NCBI GenBank assembly: GCA_048938385.1
Contig: JBHLMG010000003.1
Location: 1 to 64,000 of the forward strand
DNA length: 64,000 bases
Origin: Promethearchaeota archaeon
GTDB lineage: Archaea > Asgardarchaeota > Hermodarchaeia > Hermodarchaeales > Hermodarchaeaceae
Direction: 5' to 3'
In this document: in pieces, positions 2,794-18,623 of the stretch
How positions within the stretch are numbered: the stretch's first letter is position 1
Layout of the letters: the number at the start of each line of letters is the position of its first letter
Position numbers and translations under genes: made by a program
The notes under the pieces: generated by a model
Told to the model about the DNA's origin: nothing
The model's database searches: none
Seen by the model: the letters and a program-made list of their open reading frames with translations, nothing else

Positions 2794-3855
2794 TTGCCTG
2801 AAACTAATGAACAGCGCCCAAACAAATTTCGAATATGGTTGAGTGAGCTTCGCCTCCCTTTTACTACGGTATCAATCGTACCCATTCTGCTTGGAACCGC
2901 AATTGCTTGGGGACTAACTGGTATCTTTCTTTTGGATATCTTCCTTCTCACACTAATCGGTGGAGTATTCATTCATCTAGGTGCTAATGTAGCAAACGAT
3001 TATTGGGATTATCAACAAGGTTCAGACAATATTAATGTCGACTACATAAGACCCTTTACTGGTGGAAGCCGCATAATCCAACGGGAGCTTCTCTCTCCAC
3101 GGGCGGTGCTAGCCGGTTCTATTGTGCTTTTGGGAATAGGAGCAATCATTGGCCTGTATTTGACTTTCACTCGTGGACTACTGGTGTTGATTCTCGGAGG
3201 ATTAGGTATTTTCCTAGCCTTTTTCTATTCCGCCCCTCCAATTAAATTCGTAAGCCGCGGAATTGGCGAAATTGTCATCGGGATCTGTTTCGGGGTATTC
3301 CTCACATTTGGTGCCTTTTACACTCAAACCCAAATTTTTGCCTGGGAACCTATAATACTATCTCTTCCCATCGCACTTCTCGTATCTGCAATTCTCTACA
3401 TAAACGAATTTGCAGATTTCAGAGCAGATAGAGATTCTGGGAAACATACCTTAGTCGTTAGGTTAGGTCGACAAGGAGCTGCAAAGCTTTATGTTGCCAT
3501 TTTGATTCTGGTGTATCTCATCATTGTATTAGCTGTCTTCTTCAGAATCACGACTTGGTATTCTTTACTCATCTTCTCAACCCTTCCTCTTAGCATTCTT
3601 GGCGCACGATACACACTGAAATTTTATGAGCAACCAATGGCGATGATACCTGCTAACATCTCAACCATCGTCAATCATCTATTGACAGGTATCACACTCA
3701 CTCTTGCCCATATCTTTCTACTACTTAGTGTGCTTTACACACATGACTTGGTCCAATTCATCGTCATCGTAGTAGGAATCCTAAGCTTCCTCTTTGCTGC
3801 CTTCTTTGCTCGACGCGTTCATAAACAAACACAGGCACTAATGCAGGCCAGCTAG
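2794..3855 (+). CDS. menA: 1,4-dihydroxy-2-naphthoate prenyltransferase (UbiA superfamily)
   Basis: NDYWD, TGGSR, YSAPP..GIGE, INEFADFRAD..SGKHTLVVRLG; multiple TM helices. Confidence 0.85.
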   Translation: MPETNEQRPNKFRIWLSELRLPFTTVSIVPILLGTAIAWGLTGIFLLDIFLLTLIGGVFIHLGANVANDYWDYQQGSDNINVDYIRPFTGGSRIIQRELLSPRAVLAGSIVLLGIGAIIGLYLTFTRGLLVLILGGLGIFLAFFYSAPPIKFVSRGIGEIVIGICFGVFLTFGAFYTQTQIFAWEPIILSLPIALLVSAILYINEFADFRADRDSGKHTLVVRLGRQGAAKLYVAILILVYLIIVLAVFFRITTWYSLLIFSTLPLSILGARYTLKFYEQPMAMIPANISTIVNHLLTGITLTLAHIFLLLSVLYTHDLVQFIVIVVGILSFLFAAFFARRVHKQTQALMQAS

Positions 3856-5304: not shown

Positions 5305-6132
5305 CTATCGGTTTGCATCAGGTTCGTCATCAAAGCTTCCGAAACGATACCCTTGCATATCAATAGTGACATGCTCGTAACCTAATGCTGTGAACTGCTT
5401 TACAATTTTCTCAGCAACTTCTTTTACTAGTAATCGAGGAATATCTTCAGGTGAAACCTCTATTCTAGCAATCGTTCCATGGTCGCGTACCCGTAAAATG
5501 TCAATGGCAACCATAGTGCGGAGCGCGACTTCAGCTGCCGAAACACGAGCTAACCGCTCCAGCGTTAGTCGTTCCCCATAGGGAATTCGAGTAGCAAGAC
5601 AGCTATTCGACGGTTTATCTGCGACTGGAAGTTGATACTGATGAGCGAGTCGCCGGGACTCGGATTTAACTATCCCGGCTTCTCGCAGAGGACTGATGAT
5701 TCCTAGTTCTTCGATAGCTCGAAAGCCTGGACGGTGTTCCCCTTCATCGCTCACTGTTGAACCATCAACCACAGCCCTTAAACCTAATTTCACGGCGGTT
5801 ACTTGCGCTTGACGGAATCGGAGGAGTTTACAATGGTAACAACGATCGCGTGGGTTCTTTGCAATAGCTGTGCCTTTGAGTTCATCTATTGAATAAACTC
5901 GATGTTCAATACCAATCGTCTCTGCAACTTTGCGCGCATCTTCGACTTCTTCAGGAGGCATGAGGGGAGACTCGAAGGTCACAGCAACTGCTTTTGATTT
6001 CAAAGCATCATAGGCTAGCGCGGCGACTACAGAACTGTCTACTCCTCCAGAAAGAGCAACAAGAACGCTCCCTAACTCTTTAAGACGATGGATGATGCGA
6101 TTCTTCTTCTGATCAAGTAAGTCGTCCCTCAA
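5305..6132 (-). CDS. larE: ATP-dependent sulfur transferase LarE (nickel-pincer cofactor biosynthesis)
   Basis: PP-loop ALSGGVDS, RCYHCK, RPG, SCLATRIPYG, RVRDHG.IARIE. Confidence 0.93.
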   Translation of the reverse strand: MRDDLLDQKKNRIIHRLKELGSVLVALSGGVDSSVVAALAYDALKSKAVAVTFESPLMPPEEVEDARKVAETIGIEHRVYSIDELKGTAIAKNPRDRCYHCKLLRFRQAQVTAVKLGLRAVVDGSTVSDEGEHRPGFRAIEELGIISPLREAGIVKSESRRLAHQYQLPVADKPSNSCLATRIPYGERLTLERLARVSAAEVALRTMVAIDILRVRDHGTIARIEVSPEDIPRLLVKEVAEKIVKQFTALGYEHVTIDMQGYRFGSFDDEPDANR

Positions 6133-7430
6133 AGTACCTCATCTCCTTTCCCGAACTTTTCCTGTCGTGCTAGAGCTTCCGCCTTTTGAGCAATTTTCGC
6201 AAAAGGATACCCAGTCTTCTCCGCTACCAGCTTAACATCATCGAATTCAGCTTTCAGCTGTAAAACTTTCCCTTTACGATCACTGGCAATTTTTACGCGA
6301 ACCGTGAAAACCTGATTGTTCACTTGAATTTGGACCGTTTGTATTTCTCGTGCTAATAAGTGACGATCTGGTCGACTTACACGGACGCCAAGGCTGCCCG
6401 TTTCAGATACAAGTAAATAAGCCAGCCGCTCCTCATCTTCTGGAGCCGCTATGACAGAAAGTAAATGCCCTGGTCGATTCTTCTTAGTAGTCGTCGGAAT
6501 AATCGTCACATCTTTTGCACCGTGATTGATAAGTTCCTGAATCAGGTAGCCCAAGGTTTCACCAGTTACATCATCGACATTCGTTTCAATGAGAATTACT
6601 TGATCTTGGTAAAGACGAAGCTCTGAGAGAGGTGTTCCACGAACCACTTTCAGTAAATTCGGAATATCAGGTAGCTCTCCTGTCCCTGCACCATAGCCAA
6701 CTTCAAGCGGTTGGAACTGCGGGTAAACTTCAATCGAAGTTGGGTTCAAGGCCGCAAGAAGAGCTGCACCCGTTGGTGTTGTAAGCTCCCTTGAAATGGG
6801 GCCACCCTTGAAAATAAACTGATTCTTAGTTAGTATGTGCGTCACAGCAGGTCCCGGGGTCGTTAGCTGACCGTGTCCACTTGGGAATGATCCACCACCC
6901 ACCGCGATTGGCAGGACAAAATATCGCGCCTTCTTGGGATCAACGAGTTTGAGCTGATCAAGCGCAGTAGCGGCTCCAATAACATCGATGACAGTATCAA
7001 CGGATCCAGCCCCATGGAGGTGAACCTTTTCAGGCGGATGGCGGTGAACAAATGCCTCCGCTTCGACTAGATGCCGGATTGCACGATTTGCATAGGCTGC
7101 CGCTTCTGTGGAGAGGTTGAGATCTGTGCTCATGGCTTCTACGGCATTGAGAAGAACTTGACCTGATCGAGTTGTGAATGATTCCTCCAGTTTAATGTCA
7201 AGGTAGAGTCCACCGATGTGACTTCGCGTAACTGGCAGAAGAGTCACTTTCACCGCTGTACAATCTGGAACATAATCTACTGCTGACTCCATAGCAGCAA
7301 TCACAGGGTCCGGTTCAATGCCTAAATCGAGGAGAGCGGCAACAAACATGTCCCCTGCAATACCAGCCATTTGGGGATCAACAATAAGCATCTGATTGCA
7401 CGACATTAATAACTCCCTATGAGTTGACAA
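6129..7430 (-). CDS. larC: Nickel insertion protein LarC
   Basis: GIAGDM, ELTTPTGAALL, GYGAG, PNLL, IETNVDD, KKNRPG, ETGSLGVR, KAEFDD. Confidence 0.92.
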   Translation of the reverse strand: MSTHRELLMSCNQMLIVDPQMAGIAGDMFVAALLDLGIEPDPVIAAMESAVDYVPDCTAVKVTLLPVTRSHIGGLYLDIKLEESFTTRSGQVLLNAVEAMSTDLNLSTEAAAYANRAIRHLVEAEAFVHRHPPEKVHLHGAGSVDTVIDVIGAATALDQLKLVDPKKARYFVLPIAVGGGSFPSGHGQLTTPGPAVTHILTKNQFIFKGGPISRELTTPTGAALLAALNPTSIEVYPQFQPLEVGYGAGTGELPDIPNLLKVVRGTPLSELRLYQDQVILIETNVDDVTGETLGYLIQELINHGAKDVTIIPTTTKKNRPGHLLSVIAAPEDEERLAYLLVSETGSLGVRVSRPDRHLLAREIQTVQIQVNNQVFTVRVKIASDRKGKVLQLKAEFDDVKLVAEKTGYPFAKIAQKAEALARQEKFGKGDEVL

Positions 7431-14550: not shown

Positions 14551-15162
14551 ATGGTGGCCCACAAACCTTGTCATGGAGGCGAAACATCTGCGGAGTTTCC
14601 AGTGTACCCGGTCTATGTCTATGAGCGAACCTGTAGGGCAATATTCGACTTTTGTCTGAAGGAAGCTATAGGTGCATCGCCACGCGAAGCTTTAGGAGTA
14701 ATCCTTGGGTTTCGTTGTGTCTGGCAGGGAACCAAATACATCCGTGTAACTGATTGGGCTACAGGACGAGTAGAGGCTAGCTTAGCACATGCTCGATTTA
14801 CTCCCGAAGGTATTCTCGAATACCGTCTTGCTATGCACGATCGTTATGGCACGAATCCGCATTCTCCCAGGGTAGTGGGCCTATGGCATTCGCACCCTTT
14901 TGGTAGCGACCCCCACTTTTCATCAATCGATCTACGAACCTTCTTCAACACTCCCTTCTGTGCTGAAGGAAATGTGTTCTTCCTTATTGATCCCAAAAGC
15001 CACATTTTCAAAGTGTATATGCTTCGACCTCGGCTTGATGAACCTGGATTACAACTGGAACAAGTTGACTGGTGTACCTACAAACCTTCCGTACCGACTA
15101 ATGATACTCCATTCGCAGAAGAACTCGCTACACCTCCTGAGGAGGAAAACACTGATGGCTAA
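14551..15162 (+). CDS. JAB/MPN+ (JAMM) metallo-isopeptidase
   Basis: REALGVILG catalytic Glu; VVGLWHSHPFGSDPHFSSID JAMM motif; LIDP. Confidence 0.9.
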   Translation: MVAHKPCHGGETSAEFPVYPVYVYERTCRAIFDFCLKEAIGASPREALGVILGFRCVWQGTKYIRVTDWATGRVEASLAHARFTPEGILEYRLAMHDRYGTNPHSPRVVGLWHSHPFGSDPHFSSIDLRTFFNTPFCAEGNVFFLIDPKSHIFKVYMLRPRLDEPGLQLEQVDWCTYKPSVPTNDTPFAEELATPPEEENTDG

Positions 15163-16021
15163 GGATTCTCCCACACCCATTGAGATTGATTTTTTTGAAC
15201 GGGACCAACATGATCGCACTCGTAGGTGGCTTGGAGCTACTAATTTGGATACGATTCGTCACTCCTCTGTCCTCATGGTAGGGGCTGGTGCGGTCGGCAA
15301 TGAGGTGTGTAAAAATCTCGGGTTATTAGGAATCGGAAAAATAGTCTTAGTAGATCCAGATAAGGTCGCAGCTTCGAACCTAAATCGCTGTGTTTTTTTT
15401 CGCTCAGGTGACCATGATGTGAAATTCAAAGTCGACGCTATCACAGAACGCCTACCAGAACTTGCTACAAGTACCGTGATCGAACCCCACCCTGTACCTA
15501 TTCAACAAGCACCCGATTCGGTCTGGAACACAGACCTCGTACTCGTTGGCGTTGACAACCATTATGCCCGGTTCTTGTTAAACGCAAAGAACCTAGGCTT
15601 AACTTCACCTCGGCCTATCATCAACGGCGCTATGGGCAGAGACTTCGTATCTGTTGAAGTACTTGCCCCTCCGCACACTGCCTGTTTGGTGTGTTCGTGG
15701 AGCAAGGATTTCTTAGATGGAGTGGTTGCTAACGAAGTTCGAACACGGTGTGATCCTTTCTTCGTTGATACCGTACCCCGTTTTCCCATGATCAGCTTCA
15801 TCACCTCTGTCGTTGGAGCCATTATGGCTTGGGAAGCGACTCGTATCCTCGTAGGGCTCGAACAATGGCAGAAAACCAGACAATGGCAAGAGGATTTAGA
15901 ACCCTCCCTGGGGCGTTTCATTCAATACAACTTGCAGCATCACGAGACGACGACTGGACCTATTCTGCCAAACCCTCAGTGCAGTGAAACCTTCTGTCGT
16001 AATAAACGCAAACGCACCTAG
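15155..16021 (+). CDS. E1-like (ThiF/UBA) ubiquitin-like-protein activating enzyme
   Basis: GAGAVGNEVCKNL, DPDKVAASNLNR, VDN..AR, Zn ligands CLVC and CSETFC, candidate catalytic Cys in RTRC. ATG at 15155 follows GGAGG; the ORF-track start 14900 overlaps JAB and is unlikely. Confidence 0.92.
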   Translation: MAKDSPTPIEIDFFERDQHDRTRRWLGATNLDTIRHSSVLMVGAGAVGNEVCKNLGLLGIGKIVLVDPDKVAASNLNRCVFFRSGDHDVKFKVDAITERLPELATSTVIEPHPVPIQQAPDSVWNTDLVLVGVDNHYARFLLNAKNLGLTSPRPIINGAMGRDFVSVEVLAPPHTACLVCSWSKDFLDGVVANEVRTRCDPFFVDTVPRFPMISFITSVVGAIMAWEATRILVGLEQWQKTRQWQEDLEPSLGRFIQYNLQHHETTTGPILPNPQCSETFCRNKRKRT

Positions 16022-16024
16022 CCC

Positions 16025-16897
16025 TTACGATGTCTGGATGCTGACGACTTGAGTAACCTTCCAAGTTGAACTAAGGTGAGGGGCAGCTGTGTTGGGCGGT
16101 TGCCTCCAGGTGACCTTGAACTCTTGATGAGACCGAATATCCATCCAATTCCCAATAATAATGGGAATGTGACGGTTAGTGGCTCCCAACCAGCCCACAG
16201 ATCCAAACCATGTTGGGTCCACGGGAATCCAATGGTTGCGGATCCAGACCTCACTCCAGCCATGGCGCTCCCAATGTTTCTTTGTTGAGGCAAAGCCAGA
16301 GATTAGTCGGGCGGGAATTCCTCTGGCACGGCATAACGCGGCAAACAATGCGGCATACTCTGTACAGTCGCCAACCTGATTTTCAATTGCAAATGCTGCT
16401 CCTCGCTCATGTTGTTGAGGTACATAGCGAAGTGTCTTTGTGACTGTACGCATCGCAGCTTTGACGAAGGAAACTATCTCTGTGTGGTTTTTTGCAATAT
16501 CACGGGCTAAATCTTTGATTAGATGGTGATGGGATTCGATGAAAAATTCAGGTTTCGTATACGACTGAAGCTGGCTTGGAATGGTGGGGTTTTGAACAGA
16601 CGGGGGTAGTTGGTATTGGACTGACCGATTTCGAACCAGAGCTGTGTACCCACAGCTAAAAGTCTCAAGTCCTGCTAGTTGGTGGCAAGTAAAATCCAAC
16701 CAGTGATTCCCTCTCAAATCCGTAACTTGTCGCCCAATGACGGGTTGAGGTTTAATATCAACGAGGTGTTGGTAAGGCGGAAAAGGTGGCGGGAAGGCCA
16801 GAAAGATTCGAACATTCGTTAAAGGGTTTATAGACGAATTAGCAATATTGGTTTGATAGGATACACGGTGCGCAAGTATAGCTGAGTCTGCAGTCAT
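16025..16897 (-). CDS. Transglutaminase-like (Cys-His-Asp) protein
   Basis: GDCTEYAALFAALCRARGIPAR, HGWSEVW, WIPVDPTW. Confidence 0.92.
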   Translation of the reverse strand: MTADSAILAHRVSYQTNIANSSINPLTNVRIFLAFPPPFPPYQHLVDIKPQPVIGRQVTDLRGNHWLDFTCHQLAGLETFSCGYTALVRNRSVQYQLPPSVQNPTIPSQLQSYTKPEFFIESHHHLIKDLARDIAKNHTEIVSFVKAAMRTVTKTLRYVPQQHERGAAFAIENQVGDCTEYAALFAALCRARGIPARLISGFASTKKHWERHGWSEVWIRNHWIPVDPTWFGSVGWLGATNRHIPIIIGNWMDIRSHQEFKVTWRQPPNTAAPHLSSTWKVTQVVSIQTS

Positions 16898-17280
16898 GAT
16901 TCCTGCCCTTTAACCTCGTTTTGCTCCCCCTTGCGTTTGGTATCATCATCGAGGAACACGACTCTCCCACCAGGTGAATGTGATGAGCGTCGCTGAACAT
17001 CACCAAGAAGAATTACCTTAGATCGTTCGCTGGAATCAGGTTCTACTACATCGCGCTGTAATCCGAGAAAGCGAGTGAAGTGAGGTGGATGGGCTTCGAC
17101 CCCTCGTACTATCGTTCCTGGACAAGTACCTGTTCCTGTTTCTAAGAACAGAGCACGACACGAGGGACACATGTAACTACCACAGGTCGTACAAATCCAC
17201 CACTGACTCCGAGCCTCCTCCAGCGACACATGAGCATCACAAGCCACACACTTCATGTGCGAAGCACCATGGACACTCAT
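16894..17280 (-). CDS. RING-like zinc-finger protein with disordered tail (putative E3)
   Basis: CVAC-x15-CTTC-x4-CPSC-x11-CP-x9-H; ATGA overlaps on both sides. Confidence 0.7.
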   Translation of the reverse strand: MSVHGASHMKCVACDAHVSLEEARSQWWICTTCGSYMCPSCRALFLETGTGTCPGTIVRGVEAHPPHFTRFLGLQRDVVEPDSSERSKVILLGDVQRRSSHSPGGRVVFLDDDTKRKGEQNEVKGQES

Positions 17281-17504
17281 TCTTTAGCTCCCTCCTTTAG
17301 TTTGCGTTGATGAACTCGATGAATGTTCACTTCGAAATTAGGAGATAGATTTGGAGGACGCTGTTCTTGAAACGGAACATCTCGTTCCCCAAGAATCACA
17401 ATTCGGTCCTGTACATCCTCTTCAGGAGTTGATGAAGGTTTTCGCTTTTTTTCTTTCAGTGAAGGGTCGCTATTCGGAGTGGGTGGATCTGACAAATGCA
17501 CCAC
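17277..17504 (-). CDS. Small disordered protein with SIM-like motif (or read-through extension of the E2)
   Basis: Exactly fills the gap between E2 and the RING gene; contains RIVILGE; possible TTG start at 17495 after AGGTGG. Confidence 0.55.
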   Translation of the reverse strand: MVHLSDPPTPNSDPSLKEKKRKPSSTPEEDVQDRIVILGERDVPFQEQRPPNLSPNFEVNIHRVHQRKLKEGAKE

Positions 17505-18257
17505 CTACGAGTCATTATCATCGGTATCCAGTATTCGAACCTTCCTCTCATGTGAGGTATCACCAAGAATCCGTGGAGGTCGGCTTCCTGCTTGTCGCGA
17601 AGGAGGTATTCCTTCAAGAATTTTAATTCGCCGTTCGGGGACAGAGCGAGTGCCTTGGATTTGATGGCGTTCCTCCCATAATCGATCCAATGTAGTAACG
17701 ATGTTCTCAGCATCCGCCTCATACCACGCCATCGCTGTGGTGTTAAGTCCGTGGTCTGATTGAAACTGGGAGGGTGGTTCAACGCGATCGGGTTTTAACA
17801 AGACGAAGAACGGCAAGTCTTCAAGAATTCGATCTAGTTCACCACGAACTGAATAGCAGGCTGGTCCTGTGCCACTAGAGGATAACCGAGGGTGAAACAG
17901 GGGTGTTTCTGCAGTTGGGTGAATCATCCCAATGCTTTGCGGATATTCGCGGGGCAGGTCAAAGACAAACCGGTGTTCATACCGCAAAGCTCGATTACTG
18001 GTCAGTTGACTAGGTTTTTGAGTATATCCAGGGAGGTTTCGCATAGTAAATCCCACCCGTTTGAAAGCTCCATCTCGGTACCGGGAGAGGATGGTCACAG
18101 TGAAGTCATCATTACTCCAAGTAGTATCCTCACGGCGTGGAGGGCTAGGCATCCACCCACGGCGTCCATAGAAGTTATTTATGGAGTCAAAAAAAGTTTG
18201 AATCTGAGTTTCCACTCGCGCATTAAATAATTCCGGTGAGAACACAGGCCGGGTCAT
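17505..18257 (-). CDS. E2/UBC-fold ubiquitin-like-protein conjugating enzyme
   Basis: FVFDLPREYP, TPLFHPR (HPN equivalent), catalytic Cys in GTGPAC, LDRILEDL, GLNTTAMAWY (PLN.EAA..Y equivalent). Confidence 0.8.
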   Translation of the reverse strand: MTRPVFSPELFNARVETQIQTFFDSINNFYGRRGWMPSPPRREDTTWSNDDFTVTILSRYRDGAFKRVGFTMRNLPGYTQKPSQLTSNRALRYEHRFVFDLPREYPQSIGMIHPTAETPLFHPRLSSSGTGPACYSVRGELDRILEDLPFFVLLKPDRVEPPSQFQSDHGLNTTAMAWYEADAENIVTTLDRLWEERHQIQGTRSVPERRIKILEGIPPSRQAGSRPPRILGDTSHERKVRILDTDDNDS

Positions 18258-18305: not shown

Positions 18306-18623
18306 TCATCCGACTTCAGGCACCACATCCAAAAGGAACAGCTCATCATCCGTTACCTTGGGGTCGAGTTCACCAAAGGCAATTCCGGGGCTTAACCGTG
18401 TTGGCTCCGGGGCTTTACGAATCAAAACAAACTCAGGACGCTGGTTCCCAATTTTTGTTTCAGCCCATTTATCAATATTCACACCTTCATCACGGGCTTG
18501 GGTGACCAGGGTACGGATGACTTCTTCAACACGAGTATCTTCGTCAATGCCAATCCGAAATTCCTTTTGGCGGGGCTCAACATCCACGATGATTGAGCGC
18601 CAAAAACCTTCTTCATTACTCAT
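18306..18623 (-). CDS. Ubiquitin-like (beta-grasp) modifier ending in VG
   Basis: 105 aa with a strand-strand-helix pattern (IIVDV / FRIGI / TRVEEVIRTL), FVLIR, final strand LFLLDV then PEVG-stop; first gene of the E2 operon; RBS AGGTGA. Confidence 0.75.
   Translation of the reverse strand: MSNEEGFWRSIIVDVEPRQKEFRIGIDEDTRVEEVIRTLVTQARDEGVNIDKWAETKIGNQRPEFVLIRKAPEPTRLSPGIAFGELDPKVTDDELFLLDVVPEVG

Follow-up and report, generated by a model that had tools for sequence, protein, structure and literature searches.

A divergent ubiquitin-like protein (Ubl) conjugation operon of an Asgard archaeon carries short linear motifs in the disordered regions of its E2-like protein, of a small protein and of a RING-like protein. 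These motifs are real and non-random, they are conserved family-wide under protein-level selection, and the reading that fits them best is that of docking elements within the conjugation machinery. The operon lies in a 64,000-nucleotide stretch of DNA from a Promethearchaeota archaeon (GenBank assembly GCA_048938385.1, contig JBHLMG010000003.1, positions 1 to 64,000; hereafter the window), where five tightly coupled genes follow one another on the minus strand in the order Ubl, E2-like protein, small open reading frame (ORF), RING-like protein and transglutaminase-core protein (Table 1).

A first-pass annotation of this DNA had quoted five motifs under the pattern [RK]-[VI]-x-[ILF]-L-[GDE], and all five are found in the minus-strand translations where they had been placed. 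To these the E2 tail adds a sixth copy, PRILGD. The core reads [V/I/P]-x-I-L-[D/E/G], and in many copies a basic residue precedes it and acidic residues come after.

Conservation and protein-level selection of the motifs

The E2 is present in 32 of 400 genomes of the phylum, spread over four families, and the loci of these 32 genomes were compared together with 27 metagenomic loci. The full gene order is kept in 17 loci from species-representative genomes (Hermodarchaeota-type). Conservation in orthologues, on which the first-pass annotation had made its reading depend, is observed at the 17 syntenic loci: all motif copies are kept and the spacers are free to vary, with column entropies of 0-1 bit for motif positions as against 2.3-3.2 bits for spacer positions. 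When 25 of the 54 E2 homologues (58-82% identity) are aligned, the tail is unalignable outside three islands, G-R-V-x-I-L, R-x-P-R-I-L-D and [RK]-V-R-I-L-D-[DE]-x-D, which are the three E2 motifs. In the first, R210 is invariant and I213 and L214 are kept in at least 90% of the 25 homologues; in the second, P228, R229, I230 and L231 have an entropy of 0.7-1.0 bit, against 2.4-3.3 bits in the surrounding spacers; in the third, I242 is invariant. The first motif of the RING-like tail reads S-[ST]-V-x-I-L-[GE]-D-V-[PQ]-R as a consensus of orthologues. Between orthologues, the codons of conserved motif residues differ synonymously, and DNA-level matches between motif copies extend over 11-16 nt only, which indicates that selection acts on the peptide.

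The frequency of the original pattern was compared between shuffled sequences and a crude proteome built from the ORFs of the genome (2518 ORFs, 744,122 amino acids). Genome-wide, the pattern is near chance and not enriched, with 59 matches versus 44 in the shuffles. Within the three motif-bearing genes (453 amino acids) the same pattern gives five matches versus about 0.04 expected, and when all genome-wide matches are ranked by disorder-like flanks, the top five come from the operon. The shortness of the core and the existence of short DNA matches between copies are what a chance likeness in low-complexity sequence, or a repeat at the DNA level, would leave behind. Such an origin is nevertheless vanishingly improbable and was rejected, given the excess of matches in the three genes, the conservation over 17 loci and four families despite variable spacers, and the synonymous variation of the motif codons.

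The context of the motifs is disordered, as had been proposed: residues 205-250 of the E2 have predicted local distance difference test (pLDDT) values below 50 in the AlphaFold2 model, and the small protein is modelled in the ESM Atlas at a pLDDT of 0.32.

A universal small disordered protein

Judging from sequence comparison, the 75-residue ORF is a real gene and the universal third component of the system, as well as a motif carrier. Its translation is coupled to that of the E2 and RING-like genes, and its likely start is the TTG at 17495, giving 72 amino acids; the ESM Atlas record, whose model is predicted to be disordered, begins at the fourth codon, TTG. A small ORF is found at each of the 17 syntenic loci, with a variable acidic N-terminal part followed by a conserved core, which in orthologues reads n-R-I-V-I-L-x-E-R-D-I-P-F-E-E-E-R-P-P-N-F-S-P-H-F-x-V-K-V-H-R. 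Across systems the protein ranges from 44 to 120 residues, and in all lineages its motif is followed by P-P-N, invariant except for P-P-D in one lineage, and this in turn by a strand-like element. The motif is kept even beside tail-less E2s (loci L053 and L054).

The small protein has no Pfam or NCBIfam match, a search of the ESM Atlas with it gave no usable look-alike, and no published description of the motif or of the small protein was found in the literature. A previously unannotated small gene is defined here as a core system component, and the signature motif - PPN - strand-H can be used for finding further systems. In family f12, the small proteins have an extra N-terminal strand-like element, (E/Q)F(A/N)(Y/F)E(V/I)SS (L019:6744-7067, L024-L031, L066-L071), which is absent in the window's family.

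An old tail motif in a divergent E2 family

The proposed identity of the E2 holds at the level of structure and of catalytic residues. AlphaFold2, run with an alignment, yields a UBC-like core, for which Foldseek retrieves Ubc9, UbcH10, Ube2G1 and Cdc34 (probability ~1, E ~5e-4, modest TM-scores). A catalytic-type cysteine follows an HPN-like loop, with H122, P123, R124 and C134 kept in at least 90% of 43 E2 relatives. Searches of Pfam (including UQ_con), NCBIfam and PDB sequence profiles give no meaningful match for this protein.

About 45 further E2 relatives below 50% identity emerged when a profile was searched against 1.84 billion cluster representatives. Many of these distant E2s end with a basic spacer and then a motif at or near the C-terminus (KKVVILED, KVLILD, GKVKILE, GLQILD, RMRILD, KLKILE), and some have two or three copies. 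A strict form of the motif is found in the last 45 residues of 14 of the 34 near-full-length distant representatives versus 7% of genome ORFs, and the E2 motif is kept in all four system-bearing families of the phylum. In this divergent E2 family, the tail motif is an ancient feature that predates the present form of the operon.

Natural single-frame fusions of Ubl and E2, whose Ubl part ends in VVGG, occur among the distant relatives (P0068, P0076 and L076:2692-3660), and L083 and L084 have a fusion-like arrangement split by a frame change. These fusions were dropped as a test of tail docking, P0076 being without the Ubl N-terminal hairpin and P0068 almost tail-less. The metagenomic contig L018 encodes two paralogous E2s (2993-3682 and 6001-6672) 2.3 kb apart and with no adjacent Ubl, one with two tail motifs and the other tail-less. 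For P0080, P0081 and P0063, the contigs are short or no Ubl adjoins the E2.

A beta-grasp Ubl with ambiguous affinities

The AlphaFold2 model of the Ubl shows a beta-grasp fold with an extra helix (pLDDT 87), so that the beta-grasp assignment is supported by predicted structure and fold comparison. Its fold does not decide between SUMO and ubiquitin: SUMO, ubiquitin and the Ubls of EccD and parkin match it equally well, within 1 Z unit, ISG15 is also among the best, and the E2 fold too ties between SUMO- and ubiquitin-type matches. No Pfam, NCBIfam or PDB sequence-profile match was obtained for the Ubl. Its most conserved stretch is the beta1-beta2 hairpin V-E-P-R-Q-K-E-F, containing R18 and K20.

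The window Ubl ends exactly at the glycine, while many orthologues (L021, L032, L036-L051) are 1-3 residues longer, with ends such as PEVGF, PEVGQ, PEVGQKQ, PEVGVLP and QVGISW. The extra residues after the glycine imply that these orthologous Ubls are precursors needing C-terminal processing.

Candidate partners of the motifs

Across the compared loci, Ubl - E2 - small protein forms a constant core, the link to an operon of structural maintenance of chromosomes (SMC) genes is frequent and not universal, and the transglutaminase is found only in some lineages. Only the Ubl and E2 genes are always linked to motif carriers. The transglutaminase, the RING-like protein and the SMC complex were each rejected as an obligatory receptor, since motif-bearing loci exist without each of them; for the same reason the receptor is to be sought among the Ubl, the E2 core, the E1 and the JAB protease. 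In a given lineage, the motifs of the E2 tail and of the small protein are much alike (KRKVYIVE and KRKVYIIEE in L084, RRKLKILS and KKLVILS in L033, IRII and IKI[LI] in f12), and this likeness suggests one receptor for both.

For that receptor we tentatively propose the locus Ubl, bound by strand addition as SUMO-interacting motifs (SIMs) and LC3-interacting regions (LIRs) bind theirs, a reading that draws on analogy and on the co-variation between lineages described below and that we hold to be plausible, if somewhat short of probable. The motifs would then act as five-residue, beta-strand-forming cores (Phi-x-I-L), usually with a basic residue ahead and acidic residues or the C-terminal carboxylate behind. 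Carried by the E2, by the small intrinsically disordered cofactor and, in the window's family, by the RING-like protein of this divergent Asgard system, such a strand would add non-covalently to the exposed beta2 edge of the Ubl, as in SIM-SUMO pairs or in the pairing of LIRs and UFM1-interacting motifs (UFIMs) with ATG8 and UFM1, and each enzyme of the cascade would thereby hold or orient the Ubl. Motifs for a pathway's own Ubl occur in E1s (the UFM1-interacting sequence, UIS, of UBA5 and the C-terminal tail of Atg7), in E2s (the Atg8-interacting motif, AIM, of Atg3) and in E3s (the SIM of PIAS). In an antiparallel pairing, the basic start of the motif would lie by the acidic Ubl loop D27-E28-D29 and its acidic end by the basic hairpin residues R18 and K20, a charge complementarity that we infer from the secondary structure of the predicted Ubl model.

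All eight lineages whose E2 has the full tail motif retain Arg18 of the Ubl. Another residue takes its place in L053, L054, L055 and the high-GC lineage H, whose E2 either has no tail or retains a remnant, GGVRIDA, and on a maximum-likelihood tree of E2 cores these losses fall at three separate places (L054; L055; the L053+H clade). The E1 shows a related pattern. Its N-terminus holds a strand-like element with an acidic flank, PTPIEIDFFERD, which is possibly a seventh, related copy of the motif; the corresponding elements of other lineages read RLKVSFYEED, VSLYYFEED and VLDVNFLEKD. The element is present in the four tail-motif lineages with a visible E1 start (f1, f12, f2 and f11a) and missing from L053, L055 and lineage H, three lineages whose E2 tail is lost or reduced. 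These lineage patterns, made up of two or three independent events, connect the E2 tail with both the hairpin of the Ubl and the N-terminus of the E1.

Several points weigh against binding of the motifs to the Ubl. The independent events behind the co-variation number two or three and lie in metagenomic lineages. P0068, a Ubl-E2 fusion, keeps Arg18 and is tail-less, and the small protein retains its motif in L053 and L054, whose Ubls have lost Arg18, so that Arg18 is not a general determinant. The strongly acidic loop after beta2 is unfavourable to a SUMO-like parallel pose, leaving only the antiparallel one charge-compatible. The analysis yielded no binding evidence, direct or modelled: in a complex prediction for the Ubl with E2 core 1-204 and small protein 26-75, ipSAE was 0.01 and 0.04 and the mark 0.32, a result that, run with no controls, counts neither for nor against binding. 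The chain recognition and condensate-like assembly that the first-pass annotation had suggested find no support in these results. Finally, the joint loss of the E1 element and the E2 tail is equally compatible with docking between E1 and E2.

That docking is the main rival to Ubl binding, and we give it a limited though real chance. The E2 tail motifs would pair with the E1, for example with PTPIEIDFFERD, and so recruit the E2 to a short ThiF-type E1 without the ubiquitin-fold domain (UFD); the small protein and the RING-like tail would share the site as competitors or for hand-off, in a manner comparable to the UBA5-UFC1 and Atg7-Atg3 tail pairings. The E1 has only 288 residues and no UFD, its element is distributed over lineages as the tail motif is, and the existence of tail-less E2s suits a tail that serves as an accessory recruiting device. 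Docking of this kind leaves unexplained, however, why the same motif recurs in the RING-like protein and in the universal small protein, which keeps it where the E1 element is absent. Moreover, the core of the E1 element differs (Phi-x-Phi-x-[FY][FY]) and abuts the folded domain, so that it may be part of the E1 fold.

Two further arrangements were weighed. In one, the small protein and the RING-like tail would dock by their motifs onto the E2 core, for example at the 'backside' of its beta-sheet in the manner of G2BR/U7BR-type regions, the E2 tail then being an autoinhibitory or competing copy. Only the E2 shares with the Ubl a constant linkage to motif carriers, and eukaryotic RING E3s often have an additional E2-binding region beside the RING. 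We consider this improbable all the same: known backside-binding regions are helices, not short strands, and, as weak evidence, the AlphaFold2 model of the full-length E2 shows no docked tail, residues 205-250 being at pLDDT below 50. The other arrangement, to which we assign a similarly small likelihood, is a pairing of the strands of the three tails with each other, which would tether the E2, the small protein and the RING-like protein into a complex or a multivalent, condensate-like assembly. Multivalency (3 + 1(2) + 2 strands), the translational coupling of the three genes and the likeness of motifs within a lineage would all suit it. Yet most lineages have one E2 motif and no RING-like tail, some have only the motif of the small protein, a lone five-residue strand is unable to build an assembly, and neither a model nor covariation lends support.

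Comparison with known reader motifs and Ubl systems

It is through reader motifs such as SIMs, LIRs and UFIMs that ubiquitin-like tags become signals; to our knowledge, descriptions of such motifs come only from eukaryotic systems. If it works as proposed, the compact operon-encoded archaeal system, with six to seven motif copies over a possible E1 element, the E2, the disordered cofactor and the RING-like protein, and with natural lineages that lack one or another of them, would bring the origin of motif-mediated Ubl handling, and its minimal mechanics, within direct reach of tests with a few small recombinant proteins and peptides.

A SIM is defined by a hydrophobic core of four positions, three or more of them V/I/L, by a flank that is acidic or phosphorylatable, by disorder and by binding through strand addition (PMC12751080); the strand is added at the beta2/alpha1 groove of a SUMO-family modifier. 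At the sequence level the motifs are SIM-like, as first proposed, in hydrophobic core, acidic flank and disordered context. The cores VRIL, IKIL, IVIL, VILL and VVFL contain at least three V/I/L, while PRIL contains two and a proline. Acidic flanks are found as ILD-[DE]-x-D, IL-x-ERD and IL-x-D-x-E, and in distant relatives the C-terminal carboxylate stands in this place; the f12 copies (IRIIG, RIIP) are mostly without an acidic flank. The E2 tail and the small protein are disordered, with variable, P/S/R/E-rich spacers.

The SIMs of RNF4, of PIAS ligases and of ZNF451 resemble the present motifs in their four-residue V/I/L-rich core, acidic flank, disordered and often clustered setting, and in occurring both next to RING-type domains and on enzymes that act in the pathway of the modifier itself. 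The minimal module of the tandem-SIM E3 ZNF451 is SIM - PLRP - SIM (PMC12630355), and the two copies in the RING-like tail are likewise separated by a conserved D-V-P-R (PMC12630355, PMC12751080). In contrast to SIMs, the motifs typically have a basic residue within the core or just ahead of it, the proposed partner Ubl cannot be recognised as SUMO by sequence, binding is predicted only, and the host is archaeal.

LIR/AIM and UFIM/UIS motifs (Atg3, Atg7, ATG4, UBA5) are also strand-forming, with acidic flanks, and are located in disordered tails of the cascade's own E1, E2 and protease; they bind the beta2 edge of their Ubl, and the modifier ends in a single glycine, as the Ubl here does. However, the motifs of the E2, the small protein and the RING-like protein lack the aromatic residue with which LIR-type motifs begin ([W/F/Y]-x-x-[L/I/V]), and only the E1 N-terminal element has aromatic residues. 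Assignment to the LIR/AIM/UFIM class was rejected, with none of the six copies, nor the consensus, having an aromatic residue at position 1.

The gene content, comprising a Ubl, a ThiF-type E1, a UBC-fold E2, a JAB protease and a small zinc-finger protein, resembles that of archaeal and bacterial Ub-like operons, such as the Ub/E1/E2/RING/Rpn11 operon of Caldiarchaeum (PMC5654768, PMC6043591) and the bacterial E1-E2-Ubl-JAB defence operons, as does the synthesis of many orthologous Ubls with a short C-terminal extension. Unlike in those operons, the Ubl and E2 here are missed by the Pfam ubiquitin and UQ_con models, and there are the universal disordered small protein, the tail motifs of the enzymes and the frequent link to an SMC5/6-like operon. 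The same genome encodes a second, canonical ubiquitin-type operon on another contig (G000:C1:49222-51109), made up of a ubiquitin recognised by Pfam, an E2 of the UQ_con type with HPN...C, and a ThiF E1 that carries a ubiquitin-like domain at its C-terminus, so that two separate modifier systems are present. A further UQ_con-like match is located at C47:19185-19496.

It would follow from a bolder reading, which we regard as unlikely, that the locus is the archaeal counterpart of the SUMO pathway: a second modifier system, often coupled to SMC5/6, in which the modifier is held by SIM-type strand motifs of the enzymes and of a minimal disordered cofactor whose layout (motif - PPN - second strand) would let it act like a RING-less E3 of the ZNF451 or RanBP2 type. 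If true, reader-motif logic and the link between SMC5/6 and a modifier would either predate eukaryotes or have arisen convergently in Asgard archaea. A preprint on archaeal SMC5/6 (van Hooff et al., 10.1101/2024.01.07.573240) does not mention linked Ubl genes.

The RING-like protein

The domain of the RING-like protein has seven conserved cysteines and two conserved histidines, and its only matches, to zinc-ribbon and zf-UDP models, are weak and below threshold. The tail-bearing form is confined to the window's family, one of four with the system. The architecture of a SUMO-targeted ubiquitin ligase (STUbL), suggested by the first-pass annotation, stands as an analogy only: tandem hydrophobic motifs and a RING-like zinc domain are combined in one small protein, as in RNF4 and Slx5/8, but the RING assignment is weak and applies to a single family. 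A STUbL recruits a ubiquitin E2 through its catalytic RING domain, reading one modifier and writing another; with the canonical ubiquitin-type operon elsewhere in the genome, two modifiers are present here. In contrast to STUbLs, the RING-like protein is encoded within the operon of the same Ubl, and nothing ties it to the E2 of the other modifier.

Genomic context

The closest relatives of the window's organism are metagenome-assembled genomes labelled Hermodarchaeota or Promethearchaeota. In the operon, the E2 stop abuts the start of the small ORF, and the RING-like and transglutaminase genes each overlap their upstream neighbour by 4 nt. The genes of the JAB protease and the ThiF-type E1 converge on the operon, and an SMC5/6-like operon diverges from the Ubl gene. 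The conserved E1 start is the ATG at 15155, 8 nt before the JAB stop; a longer E1 ORF from the TTG at 14900 overlaps the JAB gene in another frame (14900-15154).

Table 1. Genes and motif elements of the Ubl conjugation locus, with positions in the window.
Feature	Position	Strand	Basis
JAB/MPN metalloprotease, probable Ubl-processing and deconjugating enzyme	14551..15162	+	family scan
E1-like ThiF-family adenylyltransferase, 288 aa from ATG 15155, without UFD domain	15155..16021	+	
E1 N-terminal strand-like element with acidic flank, PTPIEIDFFERD, E1 residues 6-17	15170..15205	+	
Transglutaminase-core protein, final operon gene	16025..16897	-	
RING-like zinc-finger protein, 128 aa, disordered tail from about residue 75	16894..17280	-	
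RING-like tail motif 2, RVVFLDDD, consensus G-G-[RK]-V-[IV]-I-L-x-D-x-E	16942..16965	-	
RING-like tail motif 1, KVILLGD (16999-17019) with conserved follow-on, KVILLGDVQR	16990..17019	-	
Small disordered protein, 75-aa ORF	17277..17504	-	
Small-protein second conserved block, VPFQEQRPPNLSPNFEVNIHR: PPN, then strand-like [FY]-x-[VIC]-x-[VIL]-H	17316..17378	-	
Small-protein motif, RIVILGERD, consensus x-I-x-I-[LI]-x-E-[RK]-[DN]	17379..17405	-	
E2-like protein, 250 aa: UBC-like core, HPR...C134, disordered tail from about residue 205	17505..18257	-	
E2 tail motif 3, KVRILDTDD, near the C-terminus, consensus [RK]-V-R-I-L-D-[DE]-x-D	17517..17543	-	
E2 tail motif 2, PRILGD, consensus R-x-P-R-I-L-D; sixth copy, absent from the first-pass annotation	17559..17576	-	
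E2 tail motif 1, RIKILE, consensus G-R-V-x-I-L	17613..17630	-	
Ubl, 105 aa, C-terminal end PEVG, beta-grasp fold	18306..18623	-	

The transglutaminase, of 290 residues in the window, is a protein of 534 residues with extra N- and C-terminal domains at L001:7379-8983 and in L002 and L009-L012. The genome-wide motif scan also brought up five giant paralogous ORFs of 1414-3299 residues (G000:C37:17563-27462, C32:24197-30718 and C24:85929-101570), which share a near-C-terminal segment (E)EM(R/K)(K/R)IP.KDR(I/V)WFL(D/E)DL and are probably unrelated to the Ubl system.

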